Notes under the pieces: generated by a model
Told to the model about the DNA's origin: nothing
Database searches by the model: none
What the model saw: only the letters and a program-made list of their open reading frames with translations
Shown: in pieces, positions 43,763 through 61,268 of the stretch
How the letters are laid out: each line of letters opens with the position of its first letter
Position numbering within the stretch: position 1 is the first letter of the stretch
Position numbers and translations under genes: made by a program
From: Arcobacteraceae bacterium
GTDB taxonomy: Bacteria; Campylobacterota; Campylobacteria; Campylobacterales; Arcobacteraceae
Assembly: GCA_963662945.1 (NCBI GenBank)
Contig: OY759974.1
Location: 768,001-832,000 of the forward strand
Reading direction: 5' to 3'
Length of the DNA: 64,000 nt

Positions 43763-43765
43763 ACA

Positions 43766-43939
43766 CTATTTGTTGTAAGGAATGAAACTATTTGGCATAT
43801 TAGCATCTACACTATTTTTTATCATTGTGTATCCAAGCCCAATAGCCAATAATCCAGCTATTACTAAATAAACAATTTTTCTTTTTTGTGGAGATTCTTT
43901 TCCATCATAATCTTCAATTTGACTTAATGTTGGTTCCAT
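43766..43939 (-). CDS. Unannotated 57-aa single-TM protein
   Basis: Hand translation MEPTLSQIEDYDGKESPQKRKIVYLVIAGLLAIGLGYTMIKNSVDANMPNSFIPYNK*; AAGGA RBS, TATAAT at 43976-43971 and a TTAACA direct repeat upstream. Confidence 0.75.
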   Translation of the reverse strand: MEPTLSQIEDYDGKESPQKRKIVYLVIAGLLAIGLGYTMIKNSVDANMPNSFIPYNK

Positions 43940-43970: not shown

Positions 43971-44002
43971 ATTATAAAATTTCTTTGTTAATCAGATGTT
44001 AA
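43971..44002 (-). promoter_or_regulatory. TTAACA direct-repeat promoter, copy 1 (57-aa gene)
   Basis: Minus strand TTAACA-TCTGA-TTAACA (44002-43986), 9 nt, TATAAT (43976-43971). Confidence 0.7.
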
Positions 44003-44034
44003 TTAACGATTAATTAACATTCCTATACTACCAT
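44003..44034 (+). promoter_or_regulatory. TTAACA direct-repeat promoter, copy 2 (OprC-like receptor)
   Basis: TTAACG-ATTAA-TTAACA (44003-44019), 9 nt, TACCAT (44029-44034). Confidence 0.7.
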
Positions 44035-44060
44035 TTTCATAAATTTTGAAAAGGAAAACA

Positions 44061-46073: not shown

Positions 46074-46081
46074 TCAATAAC

Positions 46082-46100: not shown

Positions 46101-46112
46101 AATAAAACCTCT

Positions 46113-46144
46113 TTAACACTTACTTAACATTTTTTTTGTAACAT
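46113..46144 (+). promoter_or_regulatory. TTAACA direct-repeat promoter, copy 3 (exbBD)
   Basis: TTAACA-CTTAC-TTAACA (46113-46129), 9 nt, TAACAT (46139-46144). Confidence 0.7.
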
Positions 46145-46167
46145 ATCCAAAAATTTATGGAGAATTT

Positions 46168-46605
46168 ATGAATATAGAGTTATTAAAAGAGATTGTAGAT
46201 TATGGAATTATTGGCCTCTTAGGTTTTATGAGTTTTCTCTCATTTTGGCTTTATATAGAAAGACTTTTATTTTATAAAAATATCAATATCAAAAATTATG
46301 CAAAAAAAGAACAACTCGAAATAGAACTTACAAACAATATCTCAATTATCTCTTCATTTGGTTCAAATGCACCATATATTGGACTTCTTGGAACTGTCTT
46401 TGGTATCATTATCACATTTTACACTATGGGTCAAAGTGGAGATATAGATGTAAAAACTATTATGAGTTCTTTAGGTCTTGCACTTAAAGCTACAGCTATG
46501 GGTCTTCTTGTAGCAATACCAGCAATAATGTTTTATAATCATTTAACAAGAAAAATTGAAGTTAAACTAGCACTTTGGGATATGGAGTTTAAAAGTGCAG
46601 CTTAA
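46168..46605 (+). CDS. exbB: TonB system energizer ExbB
   Basis: SNAPYIGLLGTVFGI, ALKATAMGLLVAIPA. Confidence 0.95.
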   Translation: MNIELLKEIVDYGIIGLLGFMSFLSFWLYIERLLFYKNINIKNYAKKEQLEIELTNNISIISSFGSNAPYIGLLGTVFGIIITFYTMGQSGDIDVKTIMSSLGLALKATAMGLLVAIPAIMFYNHLTRKIEVKLALWDMEFKSAA

Positions 46606-46975
46606 AAAGTTTGATTCTATAAATGTTGTACCATTTATAGATATTATGCTTGTACTTTTAGTCATTGTACTTACAACTGCATCTTTTGTAGCACGTGGCA
46701 TAATACCTGTAGACTTAAGTGAAGGAAAAAGTGCTCTAAAATTAACAGAACAAAAGATTATAACTATCACAATTAAAGACTCTGGAGAATTATTTCTAGA
46801 TAAAGAACTTACTACACATAAAAAAATTGAGGAAAAACTTTCACAACTTAAAACTTCAACACCTATTAGCATAAATTGTGATAAAAATGCAAAATTTGAG
46901 AACTTTGTTCAAGTCATTGATATCTTAAAATTAAAAAACTTCACAAATCTAAGTATTATTACAAAACAAGAATAA
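46595..46975 (+). CDS. exbD: TonB system protein ExbD
   Basis: INVVPFIDIMLVLLVIVLTTASF; GTG start overlapping exbB. Confidence 0.95.
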   Translation: MQLKKFDSINVVPFIDIMLVLLVIVLTTASFVARGIIPVDLSEGKSALKLTEQKIITITIKDSGELFLDKELTTHKKIEEKLSQLKTSTPISINCDKNAKFENFVQVIDILKLKNFTNLSIITKQE

Positions 46976-46994
46976 TCTTATTTATAACTTAAAA

Positions 46995-47026
46995 TTAACA
47001 TCTAATTAACACTTCTTAGTTATTAT
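46995..47026 (+). promoter_or_regulatory. TTAACA direct-repeat promoter, copy 4 (second receptor / DCCP operon)
   Basis: TTAACA-TCTAA-TTAACA (46995-47011), 9 nt, TATTAT (47021-47026); degenerate third repeat ATAACT at 46984. Confidence 0.72.
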
Positions 47027-47058
47027 TCGCAAAAAATTGGGAATGAAAAAGGATGTTA

Positions 47059-49185
47059 ATGAATAACAAGATATGTATATCACTTATCTGTGCACTTGCA
47101 CTAAGTGGAAATGCAGCAGATTTGGGTACTATAAGTGTTGAATCTTCAACAATTGATGATAAATTTGAAAGTAAAAAAACTGAAGTTTCAAATACAGCAA
47201 TTATAACTTCTGAAGATGTAGAGAAAATTCATGCTACTAATGTTGAAAATATACTTAATACAATACCAGGAATTACAGCTTCAAATGTAGGAAATGATAG
47301 AGTTAAGATACACATAAGAGGTATAGATAACCAAATGTATATGGGTGAAAAACCAGGAGTTGCTGTTGTAATTGATGGTGTACCAGTACAAGAAACAACT
47401 GGTAAAATTAATCTAGACCTCGATAATATTGCTTCAATTAAAGTAATCAAAGGAAGTGCAAGTTACCTTTATGGGAATGATGCAATTGCAGGTGCAATAG
47501 TTATAACAACAAAAAGACCAAAAGGTTTAAGTAGTTCAAAATTAGAAACAGAACTTGGTAGTTTTGGATTTAAAAGAATATTAGCTGGAACAAATCAAAG
47601 TTTAGAAAATGGTGCTTTTCAACTACAAGGTACTATACGAGATAGTGATGGTTATTGGGATGATGCATATTTAAAACATAAATCAATTAATGGTAAATAT
47701 CAACACTATCTAAGCGAAACAAGTGATTTAACATTTGGAGCAGATTATACAAAACGAGAAACAGGAGATGGTTCAAGTGTACATGGAGAAACACAATCTA
47801 TACTTAATCCTAAAAGTGTTACTGAAGTTTCTTATGCTGGTTATTATGATACAACACTGATTAAAACTTTTCTAACCTATTCTAATGATATTGATGAGAA
47901 TTCAAATTTTATGGTAAATGTCTCAAGATATGAAGACGATACTACTAACCTTTCTGGATCGACAGATACTAATGGTGATAATATTAATGATGACCACAAA
48001 ACTATATCTGATGAAAAATGGATTCAAAATACATTTAAAAGTGAATATAGAAGGTCTTTTGAGAAAATTGCAATTATGACTGGTATAGATTTAGCAAGAA
48101 ATGAACAAAAGAATAAAAGTATTGCAAATTTAACTGTTGGTGGTTTTAGTCCTCAAACAAAAGGAGATATTACAGGTGATTCTAATAATAATGAAGATAT
48201 CAATGCCATATATTTTGAAGTACAAAACCAATTAACGAACAATTTAACTTCAACAATAAATTTTAGGCATGATAATATAAAATATGATTATAAAAATAAT
48301 CTTGATATGACTCTAAATACTGCACCATCATATGATGCAAATACCTATAGAGTAGGATTTAATTATAAATTAAGTGACACAGATAATATTTACACAAGTT
48401 ATGCAACAGGATTTAGAGCACCAACAGCAGAGCAAATAAGTGGAAATATTGATAAACTTCAAGCAAATCCAACATTTGATATTCCAACTACTCTTGATAT
48501 AGAAACTACGAAGAATATAGAACTAGGAATTAGAGGAGACATCTCATCATTAAAATATGATGCTTCTATTTATCAACTTGATAGAAAAGACTATTTAGGT
48601 GTAAGAGCTGGTTCTTATATTAGAGCTTCTGATGATAAAGCAGATTTAGCCGTAGATAATCTGGGAGATATGAGAAGTAGAGGATTTGAATTAGCTCTTA
48701 ATAGTGATAGAAAAAAAGCCATCTCATTTTCAACTGCTTATACATATTTAGATGCAAAATTTAAAGAATATTCATTAAAACAATTAGTTCAAGACAATGT
48801 TTTTCCAATAGCCGATGTTTATCAAACAGTTAATTTAGCAGGAAAAAGAGTACCTAGAACATCAAAACATACTTTAAATATCACTGTTGACTTTAGACCA
48901 ATTGATGGGCTTACAATATCGCCAGAACTTATAGCAAAAAGTAGTTACTATGCAGATGAATTAAACAAATTCAAACAACCTGGCTATGAAATTATAAATT
49001 TAAGATCAGAATATAAAATAAATAAATCTCTGGAAATTTTTGCTAAAATAGAAAACCTTTTAGATAAGAACTACAATCAGTTCGTAAATGTAAGCTCAAG
49101 TGATATTGCAAATAATATGGAAGATGCAACAATCCGTGTTGCACCACCTAGAGCATATTATGCTGGACTTAGATACAAGTTTTAA
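47059..49185 (+). CDS. TonB-dependent receptor, unknown substrate
   Basis: Signal peptide, DLGTISV, plug IRG...VVIDGVP...IKVIKGSASYLYGNDAIAGAIVITT, GFRAPT, ENLLDK, terminal YKF; start 47059 or 47053. Confidence 0.92.
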   Translation: MNNKICISLICALALSGNAADLGTISVESSTIDDKFESKKTEVSNTAIITSEDVEKIHATNVENILNTIPGITASNVGNDRVKIHIRGIDNQMYMGEKPGVAVVIDGVPVQETTGKINLDLDNIASIKVIKGSASYLYGNDAIAGAIVITTKRPKGLSSSKLETELGSFGFKRILAGTNQSLENGAFQLQGTIRDSDGYWDDAYLKHKSINGKYQHYLSETSDLTFGADYTKRETGDGSSVHGETQSILNPKSVTEVSYAGYYDTTLIKTFLTYSNDIDENSNFMVNVSRYEDDTTNLSGSTDTNGDNINDDHKTISDEKWIQNTFKSEYRRSFEKIAIMTGIDLARNEQKNKSIANLTVGGFSPQTKGDITGDSNNNEDINAIYFEVQNQLTNNLTSTINFRHDNIKYDYKNNLDMTLNTAPSYDANTYRVGFNYKLSDTDNIYTSYATGFRAPTAEQISGNIDKLQANPTFDIPTTLDIETTKNIELGIRGDISSLKYDASIYQLDRKDYLGVRAGSYIRASDDKADLAVDNLGDMRSRGFELALNSDRKKAISFSTAYTYLDAKFKEYSLKQLVQDNVFPIADVYQTVNLAGKRVPRTSKHTLNITVDFRPIDGLTISPELIAKSSYYADELNKFKQPGYEIINLRSEYKINKSLEIFAKIENLLDKNYNQFVNVSSSDIANNMEDATIRVAPPRAYYAGLRYKF

Positions 49186-49199
49186 AAGAGTAAAATAAC

Positions 49200-49859
49200 T
49201 TGGAACTTACCCCATATCTCTCTATATTTCTTATAGGACTTAGTTTTGGAGCAACGGCATGCATGTTTTCATGTATGCCGTTTCTTACTCCAATATTGGT
49301 AAAGAGTTCTAACAATATTAAAGAATCTTTAGGTGTAATGATTCCTTTTAGTTTAGGAAGAATTTTCACTTATACCATGATTGCTATTTTAGCATTTGCA
49401 AGTTCTTTATTCATAAAAGAGCTTTTAAAAAACAATACACTTTTGAGTTATATTTTAGGAACAGTTACTATTATCTTAGGTTTCACAATGCTTTATAATA
49501 GCTATAAAAACAATAAAGGATGCGGTATCCATAAACCTATAGTAAAAGAACAAAGTTTTTCAAAACTAGGTTTTTTTACTATGGGTGCAACTATATCTAT
49601 AAATCTATGTACACCTGTAATTTCACTGATAACAGTTTCAAGTAGCACTACTACAATCTATTCAGCAATCGCTTTTGGAATAGCTTTTGGTGTTGGGGCT
49701 GTTTTATTTACACTGTTATTTTACGGATTTTTTTTCTCTACACTTATTAGAGGATTGCTTGAACAATTTAACCAGTATAAAAAACATGTAGAAGTTATAG
49801 CTTCACTGTTTTTAATACTTGTTGGTATTTTAATAATCAGTGGCAAGTTGTCACTATAA
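49200..49859 (+). CDS. DsbD_2/UreH-like (TauE/SafE-type) multi-TM membrane protein
   Basis: About six TM helices; TACMFSCMP near the N-terminus, FSLGRIFTY, NLCTP, AFGIAFG; TTG start. Confidence 0.7.
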   Translation: MELTPYLSIFLIGLSFGATACMFSCMPFLTPILVKSSNNIKESLGVMIPFSLGRIFTYTMIAILAFASSLFIKELLKNNTLLSYILGTVTIILGFTMLYNSYKNNKGCGIHKPIVKEQSFSKLGFFTMGATISINLCTPVISLITVSSSTTTIYSAIAFGIAFGVGAVLFTLLFYGFFFSTLIRGLLEQFNQYKKHVEVIASLFLILVGILIISGKLSL

Positions 49860-49868
49860 AGGAACAAA

Positions 49869-52592
49869 ATGGTTGATTTTATCAAAAGAGATAACAATGA
49901 TATGTTTAAAAACCCTATTTTTAGGTTTTTATTTAAAAATACAAAATTTCTTTTAGTTTTAAGAATAGCAGTTACACTGCTTTTCTTTTATGCTGTTTAT
50001 TTTGGATTTGTACATCCTACTTCTGAAGAGAACATCTTCACAGGTGCAGTATTTTGGGGAATATTCTGGGCACTATTTATGGTAGTGACTCTTTCAACTT
50101 TTGGAAGAATATTTTGTGGTATTTGTCCACATGGATTTTTAGGAAAATATATTACAAAATTTGGTTTGAAAAAAACCATGCCAAACTGGATGCAAAATAG
50201 ATATATTGGTATCACTTTACTAGTAATTGGTTGGTGGGGAATTTATTATACATTTCCTTCATTTTGGAAAACACCAATTGGAACTGCTTCTATGTTTGGA
50301 GGGATGACATTAATTGCTTTTATTTTTTATTTTATCTATAAAGAGATGAGTTATTGTAAATATATTTGTCCTATTGGAACACTTACAAGAGCATATGACA
50401 AATTATCATTTACAAAACTAGAAACTTATACTGACTCTTGTAAGGATTGTAGAACTTTTGAATGTGCTACAGCTTGTCAATACGATTTAAAACCATTTAC
50501 CTTTGCAAAGAAAAATCAAACTGATGATTGTACCTTATGTATGGATTGTGCTGTATCTTGTGAAGCTGTTAAATTTAAACTTACAAAACCAGCAGAACAA
50601 CTAGGAAGTAAACTAAAAATTTTAAGTGCTGAAGTTTGGACGTATATTCTTATCTTTGCTTCTATTCCTGTATCTATGGGATTTGCACATGGTTTAAATA
50701 GAACTAAAATAGCTGATGAGTTTCTATGGAATAAAACGGCTGCTTTTTTTGGTATGAATGAATATGCAGGTGGATTTGCTTTCCTATATGCTGTTATTTT
50801 TAGTGTATTTTTCGCTACATTTGGAATCTATGTAGCATCTAAAATATTAAAAAAAGAATACAGTTCTACCTTTACTAATTTAGGTGTTGCTTTTATTCCA
50901 CTTTTTATCTTTGCATCACTAGGGCATACATTAGAAACTTTTTTTATCAAAGATTATGTAACAATAGTAGATGGATTTGCACAAGGTTTTGGTTTTAATG
51001 TTGAAGTGGAAGCTTTAGCAAAAAGAGGTGATGGATGGCTTCACTATTTTGGATTATTTAAATGGATAGGAATTATCTGGTCATTTATTCTTCTTTACAA
51101 AAGAATGAAAATGATTGATGCTACAAAATTACGAAAAATATTTGGATACTTTTTTGCTTCATTAATGATTCTTTTTTACATAGGATTAAATATCTATACA
51201 GGATATGTATTTTCTAAATATGGGGCAAAATCACGAAGTGGACATTCTCACGGTGGAAATGGAAAAACAATGTTCCAAAGTGTACCTTTTAAACAAGCTA
51301 CACTTTTACAAGTGGGAAAAGATAAAACAAGTGGTGTAGTATGTGGGATGAATCTTCCTATGTTTTATAAAACAAACCATAGTGCGATACTTGATGGACA
51401 GGTGCGACAATATTGTTCAATACATTGTTTAGCTGAAGATTTACGAATAAAAAATTTAGCTTTGGAAAATATTCAAGTTGTAGATGTAACCAGTTTAAAA
51501 TTCATCCCAGTTAAAGATGCTTTTTATGTGGTTGGAAGTAAACAGCTAGGAACTATGAGTAGAACTAGTAAATATGCTTTTGCTACAGAAAAAGATGCTT
51601 TAGAATTTGTTCAAAAATACGGTGGAGAAATTGTAAATTTTAGAAAAGCAGTTTATATTGCAATGCAAGATTTTTCAAAAAAACCTTATGGAACTCATAC
51701 AGAAAAAACTGCTTTAGATTTGACACAACCATTATATCTTACACTTAAAGACCCCTCTGCATCTAAAGAAAAGTCAGGTGGACATATGCACGGTGGTAGT
51801 GGTGGAAAACCTAAACCTGAAGGATATATCCCCACACAAAAAATATATCTTTCTACTTTAAATAATAAAAGTGTATCTCCTAAAAATATAGAGTTTTTTT
51901 ACTATGATATAAAACAAAAGAAAAAAGATATTATCAAAAATAGTTCAAGAGGAAAAGAAACATATAGTTTTGAAGTACCAAACAATGGATACTACAATCT
52001 TTTTGCTGTAGCACAAAGTACAAAAGATGATAAAAGTTTTTATAATGTAGCAAAACTTGAATATCTTCAAGGAAAACATGGTATTGAAGATATTTATGAT
52101 GAAAAACTTAAAAAAAATCTTGAACAAAACCTTACTAAAATTGATTTAATAAGAATAAAAAATGAAGATGAAAATAGCTTTTTTTATAAATTTAAAATGG
52201 GTGAAACTCTAAAGTTTCAAGCAATATTTGATCAAAAACCTTTAGCAAATGCAAAAATACATATCAAACTCCAAAGTGGTTGGGAAAAAACTTCAATTAC
52301 AAATGATAAAGGTGAAGTAGAACTTACAATTATAAGAGATTATTTTCCACCTTGGAATAAATTTGAAAAACGATTTAAACAAGATTTATTAATAACTTTA
52401 GAACATAATATAGAGAATACAAAATATACACTCACCTACCCTGCTTCTTTTTATCCAAACTCTAGTGATTATGAATCGTATGCTTATGCACTGTTACTTA
52501 TAACACTTACACTACTTATATCTGGTATTGTTATTTATAGATTTAGAAAAAATAGAACAAAACCTTTTAGTGAGGTAAACTTTAATGAGTAA
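49869..52592 (+). CDS. Fusion: NapH/CcoG-like membrane 4Fe-4S protein + NosL-like domain + DUF4198-like domain + C-terminal TM
   Basis: GRIFCGICP, YCKYICP, CKDCRTFECATAC, CTLCMDCAVSC; GHSHGG; VCGM...YKTNH...RQYCSIHC...YVVGS...GTM; GHMHGG; KPLANAKI...TNDKGEV; final hydrophobic helix. Confidence 0.75.
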   Translation: MVDFIKRDNNDMFKNPIFRFLFKNTKFLLVLRIAVTLLFFYAVYFGFVHPTSEENIFTGAVFWGIFWALFMVVTLSTFGRIFCGICPHGFLGKYITKFGLKKTMPNWMQNRYIGITLLVIGWWGIYYTFPSFWKTPIGTASMFGGMTLIAFIFYFIYKEMSYCKYICPIGTLTRAYDKLSFTKLETYTDSCKDCRTFECATACQYDLKPFTFAKKNQTDDCTLCMDCAVSCEAVKFKLTKPAEQLGSKLKILSAEVWTYILIFASIPVSMGFAHGLNRTKIADEFLWNKTAAFFGMNEYAGGFAFLYAVIFSVFFATFGIYVASKILKKEYSSTFTNLGVAFIPLFIFASLGHTLETFFIKDYVTIVDGFAQGFGFNVEVEALAKRGDGWLHYFGLFKWIGIIWSFILLYKRMKMIDATKLRKIFGYFFASLMILFYIGLNIYTGYVFSKYGAKSRSGHSHGGNGKTMFQSVPFKQATLLQVGKDKTSGVVCGMNLPMFYKTNHSAILDGQVRQYCSIHCLAEDLRIKNLALENIQVVDVTSLKFIPVKDAFYVVGSKQLGTMSRTSKYAFATEKDALEFVQKYGGEIVNFRKAVYIAMQDFSKKPYGTHTEKTALDLTQPLYLTLKDPSASKEKSGGHMHGGSGGKPKPEGYIPTQKIYLSTLNNKSVSPKNIEFFYYDIKQKKKDIIKNSSRGKETYSFEVPNNGYYNLFAVAQSTKDDKSFYNVAKLEYLQGKHGIEDIYDEKLKKNLEQNLTKIDLIRIKNEDENSFFYKFKMGETLKFQAIFDQKPLANAKIHIKLQSGWEKTSITNDKGEVELTIIRDYFPPWNKFEKRFKQDLLITLEHNIENTKYTLTYPASFYPNSSDYESYAYALLLITLTLLISGIVIYRFRKNRTKPFSEVNFNE

Positions 52593-53601
52593 AATCAAAC
52601 AACTTGTAAATAATATGAATCTTATCAAAGTAAGATTTACTATTCAATTACTGACTTTTATTTTATTTGTTTATGGTGGTTATTTTGCCATTGATTTTGG
52701 TTCAAGACTGCCTATTTTTGCCTGTCCTTATAATAAAGAAGCAGCTGGAGCTTGTTATTTAATTCCATTACAACATCAGTTAGGTATGCCAGCACAAATA
52801 TTACTTGGTGGGGCTGGAATTGCAGTTATTACTGGATTTTTAACATTTCTTTTTTGGTTTATATTTCTAAATAAAGCTTGGTGTGGATATGTATGTCCTT
52901 TTGGAACATTACAAGATTGGCTAACAATGCTTAGAAAAAATATGGGTATACGTTTTTCAACATATACACAAAATCAATTTGAAAAACTTTCAAAAATAAA
53001 ATATATCCTTTTAGCTATTGTTATTTTAGTACCTCTTCTTATGGGTGTTGGCGTTTTTGGAAGAGAATGGTCTGCTGCATTTTGTCAAATCTGTCCAGCA
53101 CGAATCATCTCTCCTATGTTTAGTGGAGATTTCTCTCAATGGACAATAGACTTTTCTACTAAAACAGCCATGGTATTAACTGCTATTGGGATGATATTTG
53201 CTGGATTATTTTTAATTGGTAGTTTTGTAAAAAAAAGATTCTTTTGCTTCTTTTGTCCGATGAGTGCCTTGCATTATATTTTTTCAAAGTTCTCAATTGT
53301 AAGTTTACAAAAAGATGGAAGTAAATGTACACGATGTGGAGATTGTTATGCTGTATGTGATATGCAGATAAAAGATATAGCAGATGATGTTACAAGTACA
53401 AATATCTTAAGAGATGATTGTATTTTATGTTTAAAATGTATAGCTGCATGTCCGGAAGATGATGCACTGCATTTTGATATATTAAAATTCAAAACTTTTA
53501 GCTCTACAAAACAAGGTTTTGAAAAGAGAATGGGAATAGAAAGACCAAAACAAGCTGAGGCGAAGTTTCCTCGAAAAGGATTAAATGATGAGCAACAATG
53601 A
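52585..53601 (+). CDS. NapH/MauN-like membrane 4Fe-4S ferredoxin
   Basis: WCGYVCPFG, FCQICP, FFCFFCP, CTRCGDCYAVC, CILCLKCIAACP. Confidence 0.85.
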   Translation: MSKIKQLVNNMNLIKVRFTIQLLTFILFVYGGYFAIDFGSRLPIFACPYNKEAAGACYLIPLQHQLGMPAQILLGGAGIAVITGFLTFLFWFIFLNKAWCGYVCPFGTLQDWLTMLRKNMGIRFSTYTQNQFEKLSKIKYILLAIVILVPLLMGVGVFGREWSAAFCQICPARIISPMFSGDFSQWTIDFSTKTAMVLTAIGMIFAGLFLIGSFVKKRFFCFFCPMSALHYIFSKFSIVSLQKDGSKCTRCGDCYAVCDMQIKDIADDVTSTNILRDDCILCLKCIAACPEDDALHFDILKFKTFSSTKQGFEKRMGIERPKQAEAKFPRKGLNDEQQ

Positions 53602-54868
53602 GAATCATAAAATAGAAACACCACTTGAAAAACAAAACAGACATAAAGCTATGGAAGCAATTAAGGTAATTAATACTTTAAAAGAAGAGTTTAAATCTCC
53701 TATAAAATCTATGGATTATTTTTATACACTTTTTGAAGATGTATATTGTCATCAAAAATCACTTCATGCTGATAAAGTAAAAGTGGGAACCATGTGTATT
53801 CAAATACCAAGTGAAATTATATATGCACTTGATGGTGTTCCTATTCGACTTTGTAACGGATTTTATACAGATGATGAGCTAGGAAGTGATCTTATGCCTC
53901 AAAAATCTTGTCCACTGGTTAAAGCAAGTGTTGGGCACTTGTCAAGTCAAAATTTAAGTGACAAACCACATATGATTTATAGTCCTACAACTTGTGATCA
54001 AAAAACAAAAGCTGGTGCAACTATTGAAAGTTTTGGATATGAGGTAGTTGATGTAGATTTCCCAAGAACAAAAGAGAGTGAGGTAAGTCGTGAATTTTTT
54101 AGAAGAAGTATCAGAAATTTTGCCATAGATTTATCAAAAAAAACTGGAAAAAAACTCACTAAAAAAAATTTAAAAAGCTCCATTGGAAAAGTTGGTTATG
54201 CACAATCTTTATATCATAGACTATCTGATTTAAGAAAAAATAAAAATGTACCAATATTAGGTGTTGATATGTTTTTAGTTACCAATGCTTTTTTCTTTGA
54301 TAAAATTGACAATTGGATAAAAGCTACAGAAATTTTACTGCATGACTTAGAGTTAAGGGTAAAAGAAAATATTCATGTAGCAGGAAAAATCAGTCCAAGA
54401 ATAGTTTATACAGGTTCACCACCTATTTTCCCAAATTATAAAATACCATTACTTATTGAAGAATCAGATGCAGTTATAGTTGCAGATGAAACTTGCAGTT
54501 CAAATAGAATGTTCAACGATCGAGTTGCAGTGGATGAATGGTTTGTAAATGATATGTTGGATTCTATGGCAGATAAATATCTTAAGGCTTGTACTTGTCC
54601 AATATTTACAAAAAATGATGACCGTATTCGAAGAATTATAGAACTTGTTCGTTCATATGATGCAGATGGTGTTATCTATCAAGCTTTTGCTGGTTGTACT
54701 GTATATGAGTTAGAACAAAGAAGTGTTTTAGAAGCTATGGAAAAAGAGGGGATCTCTATACTTTATTTAGAAAGTGATTATTCACCTAGCCAAAGTGGAC
54801 AGCTAAGTACCAGAGTTGAAGCATTTATAGAATCACTCAAAATGAAAAAAAGAAAAAAAGGAAAATAG
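53585..54868 (+). CDS. 2-hydroxyacyl-CoA dehydratase-family Fe-S protein, putative double-cubane cluster protein (DCCP)
   Basis: Single 427-aa chain with Cys71 (GTMC), Cys90 (RLC), Cys109 (SCPLVK), Cys137 (TTCD), Cys304 (DETC), Cys336/338, Cys371, and the family C-terminus ESDYS...GQLSTRVEAFIE. Confidence 0.8.
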   Translation: MMSNNENHKIETPLEKQNRHKAMEAIKVINTLKEEFKSPIKSMDYFYTLFEDVYCHQKSLHADKVKVGTMCIQIPSEIIYALDGVPIRLCNGFYTDDELGSDLMPQKSCPLVKASVGHLSSQNLSDKPHMIYSPTTCDQKTKAGATIESFGYEVVDVDFPRTKESEVSREFFRRSIRNFAIDLSKKTGKKLTKKNLKSSIGKVGYAQSLYHRLSDLRKNKNVPILGVDMFLVTNAFFFDKIDNWIKATEILLHDLELRVKENIHVAGKISPRIVYTGSPPIFPNYKIPLLIEESDAVIVADETCSSNRMFNDRVAVDEWFVNDMLDSMADKYLKACTCPIFTKNDDRIRRIIELVRSYDADGVIYQAFAGCTVYELEQRSVLEAMEKEGISILYLESDYSPSQSGQLSTRVEAFIESLKMKKRKKGK

Positions 54869-54869
54869 T

Positions 54870-55673
54870 ATGAAATATTTTGCTGGAATCGATATAGGTT
54901 CAACTGCCATTAAAATCTCAATAGCTGATGAAAATAAAAATCTTGTAGGACACAAAATCAGTGCAAGTGGAAGTATGTTTTATAAATATGCTCATGAAAC
55001 TTTAGATGCACTTGTTTCAGAAATAGGGATAAAAAAAGAAGATATTATATACACTGTAGCAACTGGTTATGGAAGAAAAATATTTAAAGAAGCTGATGAA
55101 AATATTAGTGAAATTACTGCAAATGCGATAGGTGCACGAGCTGCCGCTAAAGAATATGGAGAGATTAAAACTATTATTAATATTGGTGGTCAAGATAGTA
55201 AAGCAATTTCACTAGATGAAGAGGGAAATGTAACAAATTTTGCTATGAATGACAGATGTGCAGCTGGTACTGGAAAATTTCTTGATGCATGTGCTATGAA
55301 TCTTGAAATAACAGTAGAAGAACTTGGAGATAAACATTTTGCCTCAACTGGAACACCATTATCAATCAATAGTACTTGTGCAGTATTTGCAGAGAGTGAA
55401 ATTATAGGACTTTTAGGGAATAGTCATAGTGTCGAAGATATTGTATGTGGTGTACACTATTCTATTGCAAAAAGAATTGTAAAACTTGTAAAAAGAGTTG
55501 GTGTCAAAGAAGGAGTATATTTTGATGGTGGTCCAGCACTTAATACAGGATTAGTCAATGCACTTGAAAATGAACTTAGTTGTAAGATATTTATTCCTCA
55601 ATATCCACAAATCACTACATCTTATGGAGCAGCGATTATTGGAGTAGATTCTTATAATTACGAAAATGAATAA
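54870..55673 (+). CDS. ASKHA-type [4Fe-4S] ATPase activator (HgdC/BadG family; DCCP reductase-like)
   Basis: GIDIGST, ATGYGR, IGGQDSK, MNDRCAAGTG, INSTCAVFAESE, GGPA, YGAA. Confidence 0.92.
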   Translation: MKYFAGIDIGSTAIKISIADENKNLVGHKISASGSMFYKYAHETLDALVSEIGIKKEDIIYTVATGYGRKIFKEADENISEITANAIGARAAAKEYGEIKTIINIGGQDSKAISLDEEGNVTNFAMNDRCAAGTGKFLDACAMNLEITVEELGDKHFASTGTPLSINSTCAVFAESEIIGLLGNSHSVEDIVCGVHYSIAKRIVKLVKRVGVKEGVYFDGGPALNTGLVNALENELSCKIFIPQYPQITTSYGAAIIGVDSYNYENE

Positions 55674-55677
55674 TTAA

Positions 55678-58600
55678 ATGTTTGACAAAACTATAAAATT
55701 TTTTATTGAAAATTATAAAATAAACTATGCTTTATTTATATTCTTATTTATTGTCGGAATCTATTCTTATACAAAAATTCCTAAAGAAGTACAACCAACT
55801 ATTGAACCTAGCACTATAAGGGTAAGCGGAAATTACAGTGGAGCTTCTGTTGACATTTTAAATAAAATGGCTGTCATACCTTTAGAAAATGAAGTAAAAA
55901 ATATTGTTGGTGTAGATAATATTATTACAAATATCAATCCAGGTAAATTTTCTATCACTTTAGAACTTGATAAATACGAGAAAAAAGAGGATATAAAAGA
56001 AAATGTAAAAGATGCAATTGCAATGATTATCTCTGATTTACCAGCAGATATGGATGAACCTTTGATTAAAGCTGTTGCTCATGCACGTTCATTAATGTAT
56101 GTTTCAGTTCTTTCTACAAAAATCTCTAGAGATGATCTTTTAAAAATTGCAAAAGATTTAAAAACAACTCTTTTAGGCATCCCTTTTATTTCAGATATTA
56201 CAATATTTGGTGAATCAGATGAATATTATGAAATACAAATTGATGAAAAAAAAATAGAAGCTTTTGGACTAGAAAAAAAAGATATCTCTTCAATAATTGC
56301 TGAACTCTCTTATACTTTTCCAGCAGGAAAAATGGAAGGGAAAAAAAATCAATTTTATCTTTCAACTGCAAATGGGAAAAAAAGTGCTGAAAACTTAGCA
56401 AATACACTTTTAAAAATAAATGATAAAACAATCTATTTTAAAGATATAGCTACCATTACAAAACGTTATGAAGATTCTTCAACACTTGCTAGTATGAATG
56501 GGAAAGGCGCTATTACACTTGCTATCTCACAAAATCCAAGAGGTGATGCCATAACATTATCAGAACAAGTGAGAGATGTACTTGATAAATCAAAAAAAGC
56601 AAATATTACTTTTGATATTAAAAGAGATAATTCATTTCAAGTAAAAGAGAGTTTAAATATAGTTTTCTCAAATATCATTTTTGGAATACTATTAATTTGT
56701 TTATTTACTATTGTTCTTATTAATTCCCGTATGGCATTAGTTATTATTATGGGTATACCAACTTCTTTTGTTATAGGTGCAATCTATTTTTATTTTACAG
56801 GATATAGTATTAATGTACAATCACTTGTAGGAGTACTTTTAGCAATTGGTATTATTGTTGATGATGCAATTGTTGTAAGTGAAAATATTCAACAATATAT
56901 TGAACGTGGCTATCCACCAAAAGAAGCTGCATATTTGGGAACAAAAGAGATGGCAAAACCAGTTTTTTGGGCATCTGTAACTACTCTTTTCTCATTTATA
57001 CCATTGTTAATGATTAGTGGTAGAATGGGTGAAATTATTCAGCTTATTCCTATAGCATTTAGTGCACTTATTTTTGCTTCACTTATTGAGTCATTCATCT
57101 TTTTACCTATACATGCTTCCCATATTTTAAATAATAATTCAAAAACCTTATCATGGGAAAAAAGCAAAAATATTTACACTAAAATTTTACATAACTTGAT
57201 GAAATATAAAAAAAGTTTTTTACTGATTTTTATTATCAGCGTTCCATTACTCATATTTTTTAGTGCAAAGCATTCAAAATTTCATATGTTTCAAAAATTT
57301 GATTCATCAAATGTAAACATTACCTTTAAAGGGAATAAAAATATGACACTTGAAGAAACATCTTTAATGGTACGTCAAATAGAACAAGACCTTTTAAAAT
57401 CCAAAGAGAAATTTTTTATAAAAAATGTAAGTTCAACAGCTGGTCATAGAAGAACAGCAACGGGAGAAACAGAAATTTATCCTTATGTTGGGAATATTAC
57501 AGTTGAACTTTATGAAAAAAAACCAAGTAATTTTTTCGAAGCATATATTAGCCCTTTGTTTAGTATTTATTATGAAAAAGAGGGACGAATACGAACCCTT
57601 CCATCTAAAGTTGTATCAAAACAATTGCGAGGTTGGTTAAAAGAACAACATTATAAAAGAAAATATAAATTAGAGCAAATAATGGTTGTTGAAAATAGAA
57701 TGGGAGCAACAAAAGCTGATATTAGAATTGGGTTAGTCAGTAATGATTACCAAAAAGCTTTACAAGGGGTAGATGAACTTCAAAAAGAGATTGAAAATAT
57801 AAAAGGGGTTAAATATAGTGGGAATAATATTAAATTTGGGATTGATGAACTGAAATTTCATATTAATAGCTATGGAGAATCACTTGGTGTAACAGAAAAA
57901 TATCTTGGTAATTTCTTAGCAAATGTCTATATGGATAAAAAAATAGCAACAATTTATGGTACAAATGAATCATTTGAGGTTAAATCAAAATCACTTTATA
58001 GTGATAATTTTGATTACTTTAAAAATATCACTATACCTTTAAAAGATTCAAGAGTAGTACACTTGCACGAGATATGTGATATATCTACCATAAAATCACT
58101 TGAGAAATTAGTCAAAGATAATGGTATTACTACATTTTATGTTTTTGCAAACGTTGATAATGATATCATCACTTCAAGTGAGGTTTTAGAAAAAATACAA
58201 CCAACAATAAAGAAACTAAAACAAAATGGTATAAAATTTATTTTCAAAGGGGAACAAGAGCAAAAGAAAAAACTAGAAATAGAGATGCTTCTATCAATAC
58301 TTTTAGCTCTTAGCTTAATATTTTTATCACTTCTTTATCTTTTTAACTCCATTAAAGAAACTCTTTTAGTGATGTCTGTTATTCCATTTTCTATGCTTGG
58401 GCTTTATATGGGACATTTTATTTTAGGATTACATATAACAGTTCCATCACTTATTGGTGCAATTGGACTTGCTGGTGTTATTGTTAATGATGGAATTATT
58501 ATGATGGACTCTATTAAAAAATCAACAACCCAAAAAGAGTTTTTTCACAATGCTGCTAAAAGATTTAGACCAATTATTTTAACCTCTATTACTACAATTG

Positions 58601-58758
58601 TTGGATTGTTTACACTTATCTTTTTTGCAACTGGTATGGCTGTTAGTTTTCAACCAATGGCTGTAACAATAGGGTTTGGACTTCTTTGGGGGACTATTTT
58701 AAATCTTTTATATTTACCTGTAATGTATGGATATTTTAATAATAAGCATTTAAAGTGA
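55678..58758 (+). CDS. RND superfamily (AcrB/CusA-like) transporter
   Basis: 1026 aa, 1+5 TM repeat topology, GIIVDDAIVVSENI, GVIVNDGII, RFRPIILTSITT. Confidence 0.92.
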   Translation: MFDKTIKFFIENYKINYALFIFLFIVGIYSYTKIPKEVQPTIEPSTIRVSGNYSGASVDILNKMAVIPLENEVKNIVGVDNIITNINPGKFSITLELDKYEKKEDIKENVKDAIAMIISDLPADMDEPLIKAVAHARSLMYVSVLSTKISRDDLLKIAKDLKTTLLGIPFISDITIFGESDEYYEIQIDEKKIEAFGLEKKDISSIIAELSYTFPAGKMEGKKNQFYLSTANGKKSAENLANTLLKINDKTIYFKDIATITKRYEDSSTLASMNGKGAITLAISQNPRGDAITLSEQVRDVLDKSKKANITFDIKRDNSFQVKESLNIVFSNIIFGILLICLFTIVLINSRMALVIIMGIPTSFVIGAIYFYFTGYSINVQSLVGVLLAIGIIVDDAIVVSENIQQYIERGYPPKEAAYLGTKEMAKPVFWASVTTLFSFIPLLMISGRMGEIIQLIPIAFSALIFASLIESFIFLPIHASHILNNNSKTLSWEKSKNIYTKILHNLMKYKKSFLLIFIISVPLLIFFSAKHSKFHMFQKFDSSNVNITFKGNKNMTLEETSLMVRQIEQDLLKSKEKFFIKNVSSTAGHRRTATGETEIYPYVGNITVELYEKKPSNFFEAYISPLFSIYYEKEGRIRTLPSKVVSKQLRGWLKEQHYKRKYKLEQIMVVENRMGATKADIRIGLVSNDYQKALQGVDELQKEIENIKGVKYSGNNIKFGIDELKFHINSYGESLGVTEKYLGNFLANVYMDKKIATIYGTNESFEVKSKSLYSDNFDYFKNITIPLKDSRVVHLHEICDISTIKSLEKLVKDNGITTFYVFANVDNDIITSSEVLEKIQPTIKKLKQNGIKFIFKGEQEQKKKLEIEMLLSILLALSLIFLSLLYLFNSIKETLLVMSVIPFSMLGLYMGHFILGLHITVPSLIGAIGLAGVIVNDGIIMMDSIKKSTTQKEFFHNAAKRFRPIILTSITTIVGLFTLIFFATGMAVSFQPMAVTIGFGLLWGTILNLLYLPVMYGYFNNKHLK

Positions 58759-58767
58759 TATTTAAAA

Positions 58768-58799
58768 TTAACACTTAATTAACACTTCTTTTATAAAAT
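58768..58799 (+). promoter_or_regulatory. TTAACA direct-repeat promoter, copy 5 (tonB)
   Basis: TTAACA-CTTAA-TTAACA (58768-58784), 9 nt, TAAAAT (58794-58799). Confidence 0.72.
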
Positions 58800-58831
58800 G
58801 GAAGTGTTAATATGGGAAAAGGAGAGTAGTT

Positions 58832-59548
58832 TTGAATATAAAAAGATATTTTAATTCGTTTTTTGTAGCTTCTATATTCTATAGTTTCTTAATTATTACT
58901 CTTCTTTATTCATTTGAAGAAGTCAATATTGCACCTTCAAAAACACAACATTCAATCCAAAATGTCAAATTTACCCTTATTAATTTACCAAAAGAAATAG
59001 AAAAACCTGAAGTTGAAAAACAAGAGATTGTTAAAAAAGAACCTCAACCTAAACAAATAGAACCAAAAGTTGTTAAAAAAATTAATCCTAAAAAAATATC
59101 TCCTAAAAAAATTGTTAAAAAAATAGAACCAAAAGTTGAAAAAAAAGAAAAAGAAATTGTTAAAAAAACAGAAAAGATAAAAAAACAAATTGTTGCAAAT
59201 CAAATTAAAAAAAGTGACTCTACTGAAAAAAAAGAAACTGTAAAAACTGATTTAAAACAATTAAAAATGAAACAACATAAATATTATTCTCAAATCAAAC
59301 AAACAATTGATAAAAATAAATCATATCCTCAAGTTGCTGTACGAAGAGGAATTCAAGGTGAAGTAAAAATACAATTTACAATATCAAAAGATGGTGAGTT
59401 ACTTTCATATAAAATATTAGATGGACAAAAAATATTTTTTAAGTCTATCAGTGAAGCTATACAAAATAGTTTCCCTCTTATTCCTCCAAATGATATTTTT
59501 ACATCAAACCTAGATTTAAAATTAACATTACACTATAAGTTGTATTAA
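58832..59548 (+). CDS. tonB: TonB energy transducer
   Basis: AAGGAG RBS and TTG start, N-terminal TM, Lys/Glu/Pro-rich linker, YPQVAVRRGIQGEVKIQFTI. Confidence 0.9.
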   Translation: MNIKRYFNSFFVASIFYSFLIITLLYSFEEVNIAPSKTQHSIQNVKFTLINLPKEIEKPEVEKQEIVKKEPQPKQIEPKVVKKINPKKISPKKIVKKIEPKVEKKEKEIVKKTEKIKKQIVANQIKKSDSTEKKETVKTDLKQLKMKQHKYYSQIKQTIDKNKSYPQVAVRRGIQGEVKIQFTISKDGELLSYKILDGQKIFFKSISEAIQNSFPLIPPNDIFTSNLDLKLTLHYKLY

Positions 59549-59626
59549 TAATTCTTTCAACAACTTATAACACAAATTATAGTATAAAGCATACTACAAA
59601 TCATTTCATTTAAAAGAGAAAAAATT

Positions 59627-61195: not shown

Positions 61196-61268
61196 AATGA
61201 TTACATTAATTGGTAATTTTCCTAGTATATACTACAATATCAATTAAGATATTCTACGAAGGTAATCA

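Follow-up and report, generated by a model that had tools for sequence, protein, structure and literature searches.

The gene under study lies in the window, the 64-kb stretch of DNA analysed here, among genes for TonB-dependent receptors, ExbB, ExbD and TonB, and several membrane proteins (Table 1). It comprises 427 codons and a stop and begins with an ATG-ATG start after AAAGGA; the opposite strand holds no open frame, and the coordinates assigned to the gene in the preliminary description are exact. The product contains a single HGD-D domain (Pfam, residues 71-418, E 2.5e-87) and has cysteines at positions 55, 71, 90, 109, 137, 304, 336, 338 and 371; the earlier list of cysteines was right at every position it gave and missed Cys55. 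The window has 62 ORFs that reach 100 aa; domain scans covered 55 of them, and the other seven overlap larger ORFs. Among these 55, only one encodes an HGD-D protein, and none belongs to a CoA-transferase, CoA-ligase or aromatic-catabolism family, bearing out the earlier observations that there is no alpha/beta gene pair and no gene of these three kinds nearby. The same ORFs include no nosZ or nap gene.

Table 1 Features of the locus, with positions in the window
Feature	Position	Strand	Remarks
Single-TM ORF	43766..43939	-	57 aa; divergent from TBDR1, beside inverted operator copy; kept in 7 related loci
Two operator-like repeats TTAAC-N6-TTAACA	43986..44002; 44003..44019	-; +	Back to back, between TBDR1 and divergent small ORF
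TonB-dependent receptor 1 (TBDR1)	44046..46073	+	OprC/NosA-like copper receptor type
Operator-like repeat TTAAC-N6-TTAACA	46113..46129	+	5' of exbB
ExbB	46168..46605	+
ExbD	46595..46975	+
Operator-like repeat TTAAC-N6-TTAACA	46995..47011	+	5' of TBDR2, operon holding the DCCP gene
TonB-dependent receptor 2 (TBDR2)	47053..49185	+	710 aa; first gene of tightly packed operon
DsbD_2 (UreH-like) protein	49200..49859	+	219 aa; polytopic membrane protein, CxxxC in TM1
NapH-NosL-DUF4198 fusion	49869..52592	+	907 aa; NapH-like Fe-S module, NosL, His/Met-rich linkers, DUF4198/Zcp-like part, C-terminal TM
NapH/MauN-like membrane ferredoxin	52585..53601	+	338 aa; domain scans, topology, synteny
DCCP-type (double-cubane cluster protein-like) reductase	53585..54868	+	427 aa; HGD-D, Cys alignment, fold
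DCCP-R-type ATPase ('archerase', BcrAD_BadFG family)	54870..55673	+	267 aa; Pfam, NCBIfam, HadI alignment
RND (AcrB-type) permease	55678..58758	+	1026 aa; accessory cluster member
Operator-like repeat TTAAC-N6-TTAACA	58768..58784	+	5' of tonB
TonB	58832..59548	+	238 aa

Family, fold and cysteine pattern

When the 427-residue protein was compared with PDB sequences by phmmer, the top matches were DCCP chains (7yyl_C, E 3.8e-61; 6eno_A, E 1.1e-60), and BzdN (2.2e-15), MbdN (3.5e-14) and HadC (7e-12) followed far behind. Its AF2 model (pLDDT 96.4, pTM 0.93) was matched best in Foldseek by 7yzm_A and 6eno, with TM 0.89-0.91 and rmsd 1.9-2.5 Å over 409-414 columns, against TM 0.79 for BzdN and 0.78 for HadC. 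Alignment and structural modelling, both suggested in the preliminary description, thus agree in placing the query nearest DCCP (E 1e-60, TM 0.90) and far from HgdB, HadC, BzdN and MbdN (E 2e-15 or weaker, TM 0.79 or lower). Among NCBIfam models, the best was NF040772 (double_cubane, E 6e-95), ahead by more than 240 bits; its score of 318.4 bits lies under the curated equivalog cutoff of 350, so that the query falls in a divergent subfamily and is not named a double-cubane reductase by the NCBI rule. With the BzdN, HadC and BcrC equivalog models, whose cutoffs are 421-700, the query scored 53-72 bits. A midpoint-rooted FastTree tree placed the query in a clade separate both from P0156, the representative of the cluster of the Carboxydothermus protein (DCCP_Ch), and from E. 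coli YjiM. Taken together, sequence and modelled fold identify the protein as a predicted DCCP of a divergent, Campylobacterota-centred subfamily.

The published DCCP motif reads CX19CX18-19CX29CX166-170CX32-34CX32C; six of its seven cysteines ligate the cluster, and the seventh, Cys94 of DCCP_Ch, sits beside the cluster opening and is a feature of catalytic classes I and II (PMC7317905). As the preliminary description had expected from the cysteine complement, all seven motif cysteines have a counterpart at the aligned position: C71, C109, C137, C304, C338 and C371, which we propose from the alignment as cluster ligands, and C90, which aligns to Cys94 and would be the non-ligand motif cysteine. 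The query spacers (18, 18, 27, 166, 33 and 32) fall inside the range of the 54 aligned proteins that have all seven cysteines. Counted identically, P0156 has spacers of 18, 18, 29, 164, 33 and 32, so the printed motif is inexact even for its own type.

Conservation was read from an alignment of 90 rows; besides the query and YjiM, it contains those 88 of the 150 listed cluster representatives at 50% identity that are 370-470 aa long. The six proposed ligands are cysteine in nearly all of these rows (C71, C109 and C304 in 86, C338 and C371 in 87, C137 in 88), and C90 (55), C336 (44) and C55 (4) are less conserved. The cysteine pattern is therefore not a chance feature of the sequence, and conservation extends well beyond the three cysteines that the preliminary description had named as the contrary outcome. 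BzdN has six cysteines at the same positions, so the pattern is not in itself proof of a catalytic cluster. C55 and C336 are additional cysteines, invariant in the Campylobacterota clade (19/19 rows), C336 standing two residues N-terminal to the ligand-position C338.

These features were set against three known relatives. The Carboxydothermus DCCP/DCCP-R system (CHY_0487/CHY_0488; 6ENO, 7YYL, 7YZM) resembles the one described here in its fold, its seven aligned motif cysteines, its single subunit type, its adjacent archerase ATPase and its N-terminal helical extension, a mark of the 'class I' small-molecule type of DCCP in the review PMC7317905. The alignment between query and DCCP_Ch starts at residue 41 and identity is only 32-33%; the query motif is CTCP where DCCP_Ch has C-A-C, the extra cysteine standing before the ligand and not after it. 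The YjiM/YjiL pair of E. coli, a 'class II' DCCP in the same review, likewise aligns at all seven cysteines and has an adjacent ATPase gene, but YjiM is 29% identical to the query, has 383 aa without the N-terminal extension, and aligns only from query residue 67. The third relative, BzdN (PDB 8S02), belongs to the same superfamily and holds [8Fe-9S] with six cysteines, a BcrAD-type ATPase module charging it; by contrast, it forms a heterodimer with BzdO and serves as the electron store for a CoA-ester substrate (PMC11971306). A BzdO-like gene is absent here, and the similarity of the query to BzdN is much lower than to DCCP.

Partner genes and conserved gene order

The ATPase gene begins 1 nt 3' of the DCCP gene. 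Its product matches BcrAD_BadFG (E 1.2e-50) and TIGR00241 (E 1.2e-65), and is nearer the HadI activator (E 4e-61) than DCCP-R_Ch (5e-36). C130 and C170 are invariant in 43/43 rows and align with the two cluster cysteine contexts of HadI. On the other side, the last 17 nt of the NapH-like gene overlap the start of the DCCP gene. The 338-aa NapH-like protein carries CX3CP/CXXCP motifs and about four TM helices, and its C-terminal 2x[4Fe-4S] domain is predicted to lie in the cytoplasm; C47, C57, C167 and C170 are invariant, in loops that the prediction places on the periplasmic side. The CX3CP and 2x[4Fe-4S] signature is what the neighbouring proteins share with NapH, their scores of 82-89 bits missing the curated cutoffs of 213-234.

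Natural NapH::DCCP fusions were found, P0145 (677 aa), P0276 (691 aa) and P0281 (873 aa), which join Fer4_5, ferredoxin and HGD-D domains in one chain. P0145 is 28% identical to the NapH-like protein (E 5e-26) and 35% identical to the DCCP (E 6e-73), with all seven cysteines kept. Complex prediction for DCCP and DCCP-R with residues 216-338 of the NapH-like protein gave scores of 0.00 and 0.24, where the mark is 0.32; in a series without control runs, these weigh on neither side of the binding question.

Gene order was compared in the best 80 of 121 loci found, all in Campylobacterota relatives with 67-96% identity. Because this sample is phylogenetically narrow, part of the conservation reflects shared ancestry. 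Within these best 80 loci, the NapH-like gene lay immediately 5' of the DCCP gene in all 65 with at least 1 kb upstream, and the ATPase gene immediately 3' of it in 75 of 77; the NapH-DCCP order was constant despite rearrangement of the other cluster genes. The wider neighbourhood was counted in the 47 of these 80 loci that have 9 kb of flank on each side. DsbD_2 was present in 47/47, a TBDR2 relative in 42/47, the NapH-NosL-DUF4198 fusion, ExbB and ExbD in 36/47 each, TonB in 30/47, the RND permease in 13/47 and the OprC-like TBDR1 in 11/47. Cultured carriers include Sulfurovum sp. CS9, Sulfurimonas sp. CS5, and named Arcobacter and Sulfurimonas isolates. In conclusion, the context informs DCCP physiology, as the preliminary description had proposed, and does so more specifically than it had supposed, through a conserved TonB/metal cluster, a NapH partner and natural fusions.

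Candidate metal-uptake neighbours and a shared promoter repeat

The neighbouring genes carry several signs of metal handling. With the limit set at E 1e-10, TBDR1 matches no PDB entries other than chains of the copper receptor OprC. CxxxM and HxM are the copper-binding motifs of OprC; TBDR1 has GACPNRMD, identical to OprC, and an HPM that aligns to OprC HIM in a weak segment of the alignment. Its score with TIGR01778 (TonB-copper) is 187.8 bits, under the cutoff of 472. TBDR2 resembles PqqU/YncD and siderophore-type receptors, and is not of a metal-specific type. A model of the periplasmic part of the 907-aa protein matched Zcp with Zn, Cu or Co (9mhl, 9mhm, 9mhn) at E 6e-11; it also matched 7og7, the copper chaperone NosL, at TMt 0.70, and the Ni-bound DUF4198 protein 9gcb, so that the folds corresponding to NosL and Zcp (DUF4198) were both found. 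DUF4198 proteins have been defined as periplasmic and metal-buffering (PMC12663993). An Atlas search with the 907-aa protein returned nothing beyond what is probably its own cluster. The DsbD_2 protein, a candidate inner-membrane permease or thiol relay, lies in the Atlas near clusters automatically named UreH. No adaptor or outer-membrane partner gene adjoins the RND permease.

The cluster also shares a promoter element. TTAAC-N6-TTAACA occurs five times in the 64 kb against 0.24 expected, always in the intergenic regions of the cluster. Among the related loci, 54 of the best 80 of 121 carry the repeat; in raw counts, there are 110 instances in the loci, of which 32 lie 5' of TBDR2-like genes and 28 5' of exbB, with 37 not within 200 nt 5' of a recognized cluster gene. 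An OmpR-type regulator adjoins the cluster in several genomes. The only OmpR-type regulator of the window (4210-4875) was considered as the cluster regulator and set aside, being just 39% identical to the cluster-adjacent regulator of one such locus, L063. Rfam gave no match in the whole window at gathering thresholds, and hence no cobalamin, Moco or NiCo riboswitch; a Fur-box consensus gave none with up to three mismatches. A promoter and terminator scan of 43500-62000 gave 100 promoter-like sites where 117 were expected, and 6 terminators where 5.1 were; with DNA this rich in AT, the scan is not informative.

Proposed role and alternatives

We favour, with moderate confidence, the interpretation that the DCCP is the double-cubane reductive arm of a co-regulated TonB-dependent acquisition system for a transition metal, probably linked to copper. 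Each subunit of the DCCP homodimer would most likely bind one [8Fe-9S] cluster through C71, C109, C137, C304, C338 and C371, and the adjacent archerase ATPase (DCCP-R) would supply it with ATP-energized electrons of very low potential. The NapH-type ferredoxin would be the dedicated membrane partner, its cytoplasmic 2x[4Fe-4S] domain acting as the probable module of electron entry from the quinone pool or a periplasmic donor. Menaquinol is too weak to reduce an archerase cluster without additional energy, so electron entry through NapH is uncertain and a soluble ferredoxin may be the donor instead. Together, the three proteins would form the cytoplasmic redox arm of an acquisition system comprising an outer-membrane receptor, periplasmic metal capture by NosL and DUF4198/Zcp-like domains, the DsbD_2/UreH-like protein and ExbBD-TonB, to which some genomes add an RND pump and a copper receptor of the OprC type. 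What the double-cubane cluster would then reduce is an imported metal complex or small metal-bound compound out of reach of ordinary reductants, copper or another sulfide-loving trace metal being the leading candidate. Of this picture, the family, fold, cysteine pattern, gene order, common promoter motif and natural fusions are observed; the cluster type, the direction of electron flow, the metal and the substrate are inferred.

A tie between DCCPs and metal traffic has a precedent. Double-cubane proteins co-occur with, and often adjoin, the metal import/efflux locus SAO, where DCCP and its activase are tied genomically to the import and export of metal species (10.1101/2022.07.06.499078). That locus encodes an ABC importer, the ArsP-like exporter SaoE, the MerB-like SaoL and selenoproteins, and is found in anaerobic Firmicutes, spirochaetes and Deltaproteobacteria (10.1101/2022.07.06.499078). 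The hosts here are Campylobacterota, and the cluster instead has a TonB-dependent receptor, NosL/DUF4198, DsbD_2 and NapH-like proteins, with an RND pump in some cases; no neighbour was assigned to a Sao family by the Pfam and NCBIfam scans.

It is possible, if unlikely, that the DCCP/DCCP-R pair is free-standing and reduces a small diffusible substrate of the nitrogenase type, such as azide, hydrazine, hydroxylamine-like compounds, cyanide, isonitriles or acetylene, for detoxification or assimilation, its neighbours being only loosely related, perhaps through a common anaerobiosis or stress signal. Acetylene, hydrazine and azide are the only substrates on which DCCP activity has been measured (PMC9351452, PMC7317905), and the query shares the N-terminal extension by which DCCP_Ch constricts its substrate channel. 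Moreover, most DCCPs appear not to lie beside TonB systems; E. coli yjiML adjoins the unrelated genes yjiN, mdtM and yjiK and lacks TonB, NapH and NosL genes around it, and a literature search found no paper combining 'double-cubane' and 'TonB'. A merely loose association is nevertheless hard to reconcile with a NapH-like order and a DsbD_2 presence that have no exception in the loci counted above despite rearrangements, with the NapH::DCCP fusions, or with the common promoter motif 5' of exbB, tonB and both receptors.

Less probable again is an arrangement in which the double-cubane cluster is an ATP-charged electron store that feeds, through the NapH-like Fe-S proteins, a periplasmic NosL/DUF4198 site where a receptor-delivered metal ion, metal-sulfur or chelate species is reduced. 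In class I benzoyl-CoA reductase, the [8Fe-9S] of BzdN has been described as a cofactor that transfers and stores electrons (PMC11971306). In addition, the 907-aa protein joins a NapH-like module and periplasmic metal-binding domains in one chain, and the four invariant cysteines of the 338-aa protein are predicted to face the periplasm. On thermodynamic grounds, however, transit through ordinary [4Fe-4S] clusters would waste the low potential bought with ATP, and the query is much nearer the catalytic homodimeric DCCP than BzdN and keeps C90, the seventh cysteine at the cluster opening that marks the catalytic classes (PMC7317905).

We consider it very improbable that the protein is not an enzyme and instead serves as scaffold or store for a heterometal-sulfur cluster built from imported metal. 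The metal-uptake context and the clade-specific C55 and C336, the latter near ligand C338, would suit such a function, but the literature search found no precedent, and a dedicated ATPase with intact nucleotide and cluster motifs argues for repeated electron delivery, that is, for catalysis. Finally, a conventional 2-hydroxyacyl-CoA dehydratase or benzoyl-CoA reductase subunit, as public annotations name the homologues, would suit the HGD-D family but is effectively ruled out by the missing partner subunit, in line with the lack of CoA-transferase, CoA-ligase and aromatic-pathway genes among the 55 of 62 ORFs scanned, the low BzdN, HadC and BcrC equivalog scores, and the conservation of six cysteines, not three.

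Returning to the reductive arm of a metal-acquisition system, we tentatively go one step further and suggest a first physiological role for a DCCP, as an ATP-driven, membrane-tethered reductase, fed by a NapH-type ferredoxin, for a metal complex, most likely of copper or another chalcophile metal, imported by a TonB-dependent receptor; this narrower proposal we hold to be possible but doubtful. The biological function of DCCPs is stated to be unknown in PMC7317905 (2020), PMC9351452 (2022) and PMC11971306 (2025); DCCPs have been studied as soluble two-component systems on artificial substrates. Our literature search found no mention of a NapH-like membrane partner or a TonB/metal context for the Carboxydothermus system. 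In Sulfurovum S0 transcriptomics (PMC10045233) and work on the Zeitz epsilonproteobacterium (PMC4674564), it found TonB systems but neither the cluster nor a dehydratase-like gene. PMC11484787 was discarded as a source, 'double cubane' there referring to NifB-co only. Our literature search found no report of the NapH-NosL-DUF4198 fusion or of its pairing with DCCP.

What is new here is the genomic context of a DCCP-type gene, a conserved, co-regulated TonB metal-uptake cluster. The locus gives a concrete place in which to seek the natural job of DCCP. It points to a NapH-type membrane ferredoxin, invariantly adjacent and sometimes fused to the DCCP, as an obligate third partner, and offers a testable process, metal acquisition by a TonB-dependent regulon whose metal-binding domains are of the NosL and DUF4198 kinds, together with a candidate regulatory site, the TTAACA direct repeat, and a candidate class of regulator, the OmpR type. 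Since there are cultured carriers, the long-standing question of DCCP function is open to experiment. An answer would also bear on how sulfide-oxidizing bacteria are supplied with copper and similar metals where sulfide makes them scarce. If the proposed role is true, Campylobacterota of sulfide zones could gain access to trace metals otherwise out of their reach and, together with the SAO association, the handling of imported metal compounds would be suggested as a general theme of DCCPs.

The DCCP and its partner ATPase

The gene under study, hereafter the query, was located exactly where the preliminary description had placed it, as a 427-codon frame on the forward strand with the opposite strand closed; it starts with a double ATG (ATG-ATG), preceded by a ribosome-binding-like AAAGGA stretch. 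All eight cysteines that had been listed (71, 90, 109, 137, 304, 336, 338 and 371) are present, but Cys55 had been omitted, giving a total of nine. Pfam scanning of 55 of the 62 window ORFs of at least 100 aa (the other seven overlap larger ORFs) identified a single HGD-D domain in the query (residues 71-418, E = 2.5e-87) and, as previously proposed, neither a second HGD-D gene that would make an alpha/beta pair nor any CoA-transferase, CoA-ligase or aromatic-degradation family.

Alignments of the kind suggested at that stage place the query with the double-cubane cluster proteins (DCCPs). [quoted passage not shown] Structure modelling, also suggested there, gave an AlphaFold2 model (87-row alignment, pLDDT 96.4, pTM 0.93) whose top structural matches are DCCP entries (TM 0.89-0.91, rmsd 1.9-2.5 Å over 409-414 columns), compared with TM 0.79 for BzdN and 0.78 for HadC. 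In the review by their discoverers (PMC7317905), DCCPs are defined by a seven-cysteine motif, of which six residues ligate the [8Fe-9S] cluster, while Cys94, the seventh, lies next to it. In HMMER alignments with the PDB chains, C71, C90, C109, C137, C304, C338 and C371 of the query pair with DCCP cysteines.

Among 1.84 billion cluster representatives searched in full with HMMER, 2234 proved to be relatives, including 142 at E ≤ 1e-30. In a 90-row alignment comprising the query, the E. coli relative YjiM and the 88 representatives of 370-470 aa among 150 listed, the ligand positions C71, C109, C137, C304, C338 and C371 are cysteines in 86, 86, 88, 86, 87 and 87 rows, respectively, contrary to the possibility, raised beforehand, that only three would be conserved. 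The same alignment has cysteine at the C90 position in 55 rows, at C336 in 44 and at C55 in 4. The six ligands are invariant in the 87-row alignment built for folding, from which nine rows without the cysteines or badly aligned had been dropped, so that this invariance is partly due to selection; all nine cysteines are invariant in an alignment with 18 of the 120 close homologues (71-93% identity). The spacers of the query (18, 18, 27, 166, 33 and 32) stay within the limits seen in the 54 rows that have the complete seven-cysteine set. Counted likewise, those of P0156, the representative of the C. hydrogenoformans DCCP cluster (540 bits to 6eno), are 18, 18, 29, 164, 33 and 32 and depart from the printed seven-cysteine motif, which is therefore approximate. 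One cluster representative at 47% identity, P0128, carries Q, P and L in place of C90, C109 and C137, and its match to HGD-D does not begin before profile position 71, which points to either a degenerate paralogue or an N-terminus that was mis-assembled.

In long "class I" DCCPs, N-terminal helices close the substrate channel (PMC7317905). Helices of this type are present and aligned in the query, whereas YjiM, 29% identical to it, lacks them. The top NCBIfam model for the query is NF040772, "double-cubane-cluster-containing anaerobic reductase", with 318.4 bits, below the curated cutoff of 350. In a midpoint-rooted FastTree phylogeny, the query clusters with a few representatives at 65, 54, 47 and 38% identity, in a clade separate from both the C. 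hydrogenoformans DCCP representative and YjiM. Judged from its sequence, the query is a member of a divergent DCCP subfamily, the family and its ATPase being themselves already known. BzdN, too, holds an [8Fe-9S] cluster through six cysteines but uses it as an electron store (PMC11971306); a catalytic cluster in the query can therefore not be deduced from the cysteine pattern alone.

The ATPase encoded 1 nt downstream, DCCP-R, matches TIGR00241 (NCBIfam, E = 1.2e-65). Its nearest match is the HadI activator (4eht, 4e-61), with the C. hydrogenoformans counterpart (7yyl_E) further away (5e-36). Its C130 and C170, invariant in 43/43 orthologues (the window DCCP-R and 42 of 74 extracted sequences), share sequence contexts with the two conserved cysteines of HadI.

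The conserved operon and its membrane ferredoxin

Every gene between 47053 and 58758 lies on the forward strand, with intergenic gaps of -17 to +14 nt. The TonB gene is found 73 nt downstream of the RND permease, and ExbB, ExbD and the TonB-dependent receptor TBDR1 are encoded just upstream of the operon, which opens with a second receptor, TBDR2. To follow this gene set, window proteins were mapped by tblastn onto the best 80 of 121 relatives from one scan of a species-representative genome collection. These 80 loci, all from Campylobacterota (Arcobacteraceae, Sulfurimonas, Sulfurovum, Sulfuricurvum and Sulfurospirillum), encode DCCPs 67-96% identical to the query.

Features of the DCCP cluster in the window and their occurrence in related loci (counts refer to loci flanked by 9 kb or more on each side unless stated otherwise)
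Feature	Position	Strand	Remark	Related loci
57-aa single-TM ORF	43766-43939	-	divergent from TBDR1, adjoins inverted repeat copy	
Repeat before TBDR1	43986-44019		two copies back to back	
TBDR1	44046-46073		OprC-like receptor	11/47
Repeat before exbB	46113-46129			
ExbB, ExbD				36/47 each
Repeat before TBDR2	46995-47011			
TBDR2	47053-49185	+	TonB-dependent receptor	42/47 (relative)
DsbD_2 protein	49200-49859	+	membrane protein	47/47
907-aa protein	49869-52592	+	NapH-NosL-DUF4198 fusion	36/47
NapH-like protein	52585-53601	+	338 aa, NapH/MauN-like membrane ferredoxin	65/65 with at least 1 kb upstream; end ≤300 nt from DCCP start
DCCP (query)	53585-54868	+	427 codons, HGD-D domain	
DCCP-R	54870-55673	+	BcrAD_BadFG ATPase (Pfam)	75/77 with room; start ≤300 nt from DCCP end
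RND permease	55678-58758	+		13/47
Repeat before tonB	58768-58784			
TonB				30/47

Gene order varies among loci, DsbD_2 and ExbBD changing place, while the gene set is still kept together. The two loci without an adjacent DCCP-R are L036 and L077; L036 (Sulfurimonadaceae; 5439-7761 and downstream) carries two tandem NapH-DCCP units, with DCCPs 74% and 65% identical to the query, followed by a single DCCP-R. In Sulfurovaceae and Sulfuricurvum, a 320-365-aa protein takes the place of the 907-aa fusion, with a weak DUF4198 match in one locus (L028). In L017, which also lacks the fusion, stand-alone NosL and DsrE-like genes lie just upstream on the opposite strand (2935-3843, -); SaoD, a DsrE-like protein, belongs to the SAO metal import/efflux locus described in the Haft preprint (10.1101/2022.07.06.499078).

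The NapH-DCCP association is also found as natural fusions. P0145, a distant cluster representative of 677 aa, bears Fer4_5 and 2x[4Fe-4S] domains N-terminal to HGD-D. Its N-terminal part aligns with residues 72-327 of the window NapH-like protein (28% identity, E = 5e-26) across the CX3CP, FFCxxCP and CPEDDAL segments, and its C-terminal part aligns with the query (35% identity, E = 6e-73), with all seven cysteines and the same ACTCP motif. Two further fused NapH-DCCP clusters, P0276 (691 aa) and P0281 (873 aa), were recovered among the 101 matches to P0145. Since the nearest named unfused relatives are Lachnospiraceae-type Firmicutes, the partnership probably extends beyond Campylobacterota. 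Fusion also puts the Fe-S domain of NapH on the side of the membrane that DCCP occupies, the cytoplasmic one. DCCP is further found joined to the ATPase in either order (P0144, P0162, P0267 and P0273), to a PQQ_2 beta-propeller (P0269) or to an FHA domain (P0207). The 338-aa NapH-like protein has four invariant cysteines (C47, C57, C167 and C170) in loops predicted to be periplasmic by a simple hydropathy and positive-inside reading, and a conserved C-terminal motif beyond the ferredoxin domain (F305, S307, G311, F312, R315 and M316).

The 907-aa protein has a NapH-like module (two CX3CP motifs, eight ferredoxin cysteines) at its N-terminus and a TM helix followed by a basic tail at its C-terminus; it also contains a NosL domain, a beta-rich domain and the stretches GHSHGG and GGHMHGG. 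When residues 455-907 were modelled (pLDDT 77), matches were obtained to Zcp, a gonococcal zinc-capture protein, in Zn-, Cu- or Co-bound form (E = 6e-11), to the copper chaperone NosL (7og7, TMt 0.70) and to a DUF4198 protein with Ni bound. DUF4198 proteins are periplasmic and metal-buffering (PMC12663993). The DsbD_2 protein carries CxxxC within TM helix 1 and is placed by the Atlas near clusters automatically named UreH-like. The RND permease scores higher with multidrug-type than with CusA/CzcA-type models (421 vs 217 bits), and adaptor and outer-membrane-factor genes are absent next door. Elsewhere in the window, DNA polymerase III alpha is divided between two ORFs 83 nt apart (29464-33011, -), of which one encodes a 204-aa PHP domain (32397-33011) and the other the remaining 949 aa (29464-32313); the gene may be split or frameshifted, or the sequence may contain an error.

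A promoter repeat and a candidate copper receptor

In the intergenic regions of the cluster, the hexamer TTAACA recurs with a period of 11 as the direct repeat TTAAC-N6-TTAACA. The 64-kb window contains five copies where 0.24 would be expected; five were reached in 0/100 shuffles, and all the copies fall in intergenic regions of the cluster. The repeat is present in 54 of the 80 related loci, with 110 instances, of which 32 lie within 200 nt upstream of TBDR2-like genes, 28 of exbB, 6 of TBDR1, 4 of tonB and 3 of DsbD_2; 37 adjoin no recognised gene. Its layout is typical of OmpR/PhoB-type regulator sites, and the repeat resembles an operator for an OmpR-type regulator. Eight loci (L063, L057, L054, L061, L055, L033, L021 and L022) encode an OmpR-type response regulator beside the cluster, which is therefore a candidate regulator; these proteins are 46-80% identical to the L063 copy (3019-3684, -). 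The sole OmpR-type gene of the window (4210-4875) is 39% identical to that copy and lies 39 kb from the cluster. The 57-aa ORF beside the inverted repeat is kept in seven loci (L002, L003, L005, L034, L019, L016 and L013; 58-88% identity).

At E ≤ 1e-10, the only PDB matches of TBDR1 are chains of the copper receptor OprC. Both proteins have GACPNRMD, and HPM of TBDR1 aligns with HIM of OprC in a weak segment; in OprC, motifs of this kind (CxxxM and HxM) bind copper. The best NCBIfam model for TBDR1 is the TonB-dependent copper receptor, at 188 bits for a cutoff of 472. On these similarities, TBDR1 probably takes up copper, and the candidate operator in front of it is shared with the rest of the cluster.

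A proposed reductase for a metal compound

Directly seen are a DCCP-fold protein with a complete cysteine motif, its ATPase, and an invariably adjacent, sometimes fused, NapH-type ferredoxin; TonB-dependent uptake and periplasmic metal-binding proteins have the promoter repeat in common. We propose that a substrate would enter via TBDR2, the NosL/DUF4198 domains and DsbD_2, that ATP hydrolysis by DCCP-R would push electrons onto the double-cubane cluster, and that a small metal-bound compound or metal complex would be reduced there, the NapH-like protein serving as membrane anchor for the DCCP/DCCP-R pair and as electron supply. For the metal, copper is the best lead, given a NosL domain and an OprC-like receptor preceded by the same promoter repeat; solved structures of the DUF4198 fold, however, have Zn, Cu, Co or Ni bound. 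The electron source is the weak point of this model. As a reductant, menaquinol is too weak for an archerase cluster unless further energy is put in, so ferredoxin may act as the donor instead and the NapH-like protein may do something else.

Searches of an open-access paper collection on dehydratase/NosL/TonB/NapH, YjiM/YjiL and double-cubane found no description of this gene cluster, and "double-cubane" together with "TonB" gave no match. What appears new is the membrane partner, together with the TonB/metal regulon and the candidate operator motif. Independently, in the Haft preprint (10.1101/2022.07.06.499078), double-cubane proteins are tied to a metal import/efflux locus in anaerobes and proposed to reduce an imported metal-containing compound. 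Pfam and NCBIfam scans assigned no Sao family to the window neighbours; the proposed metal-compound reductase would therefore be served by a second, unrelated transport system with the same metal theme.
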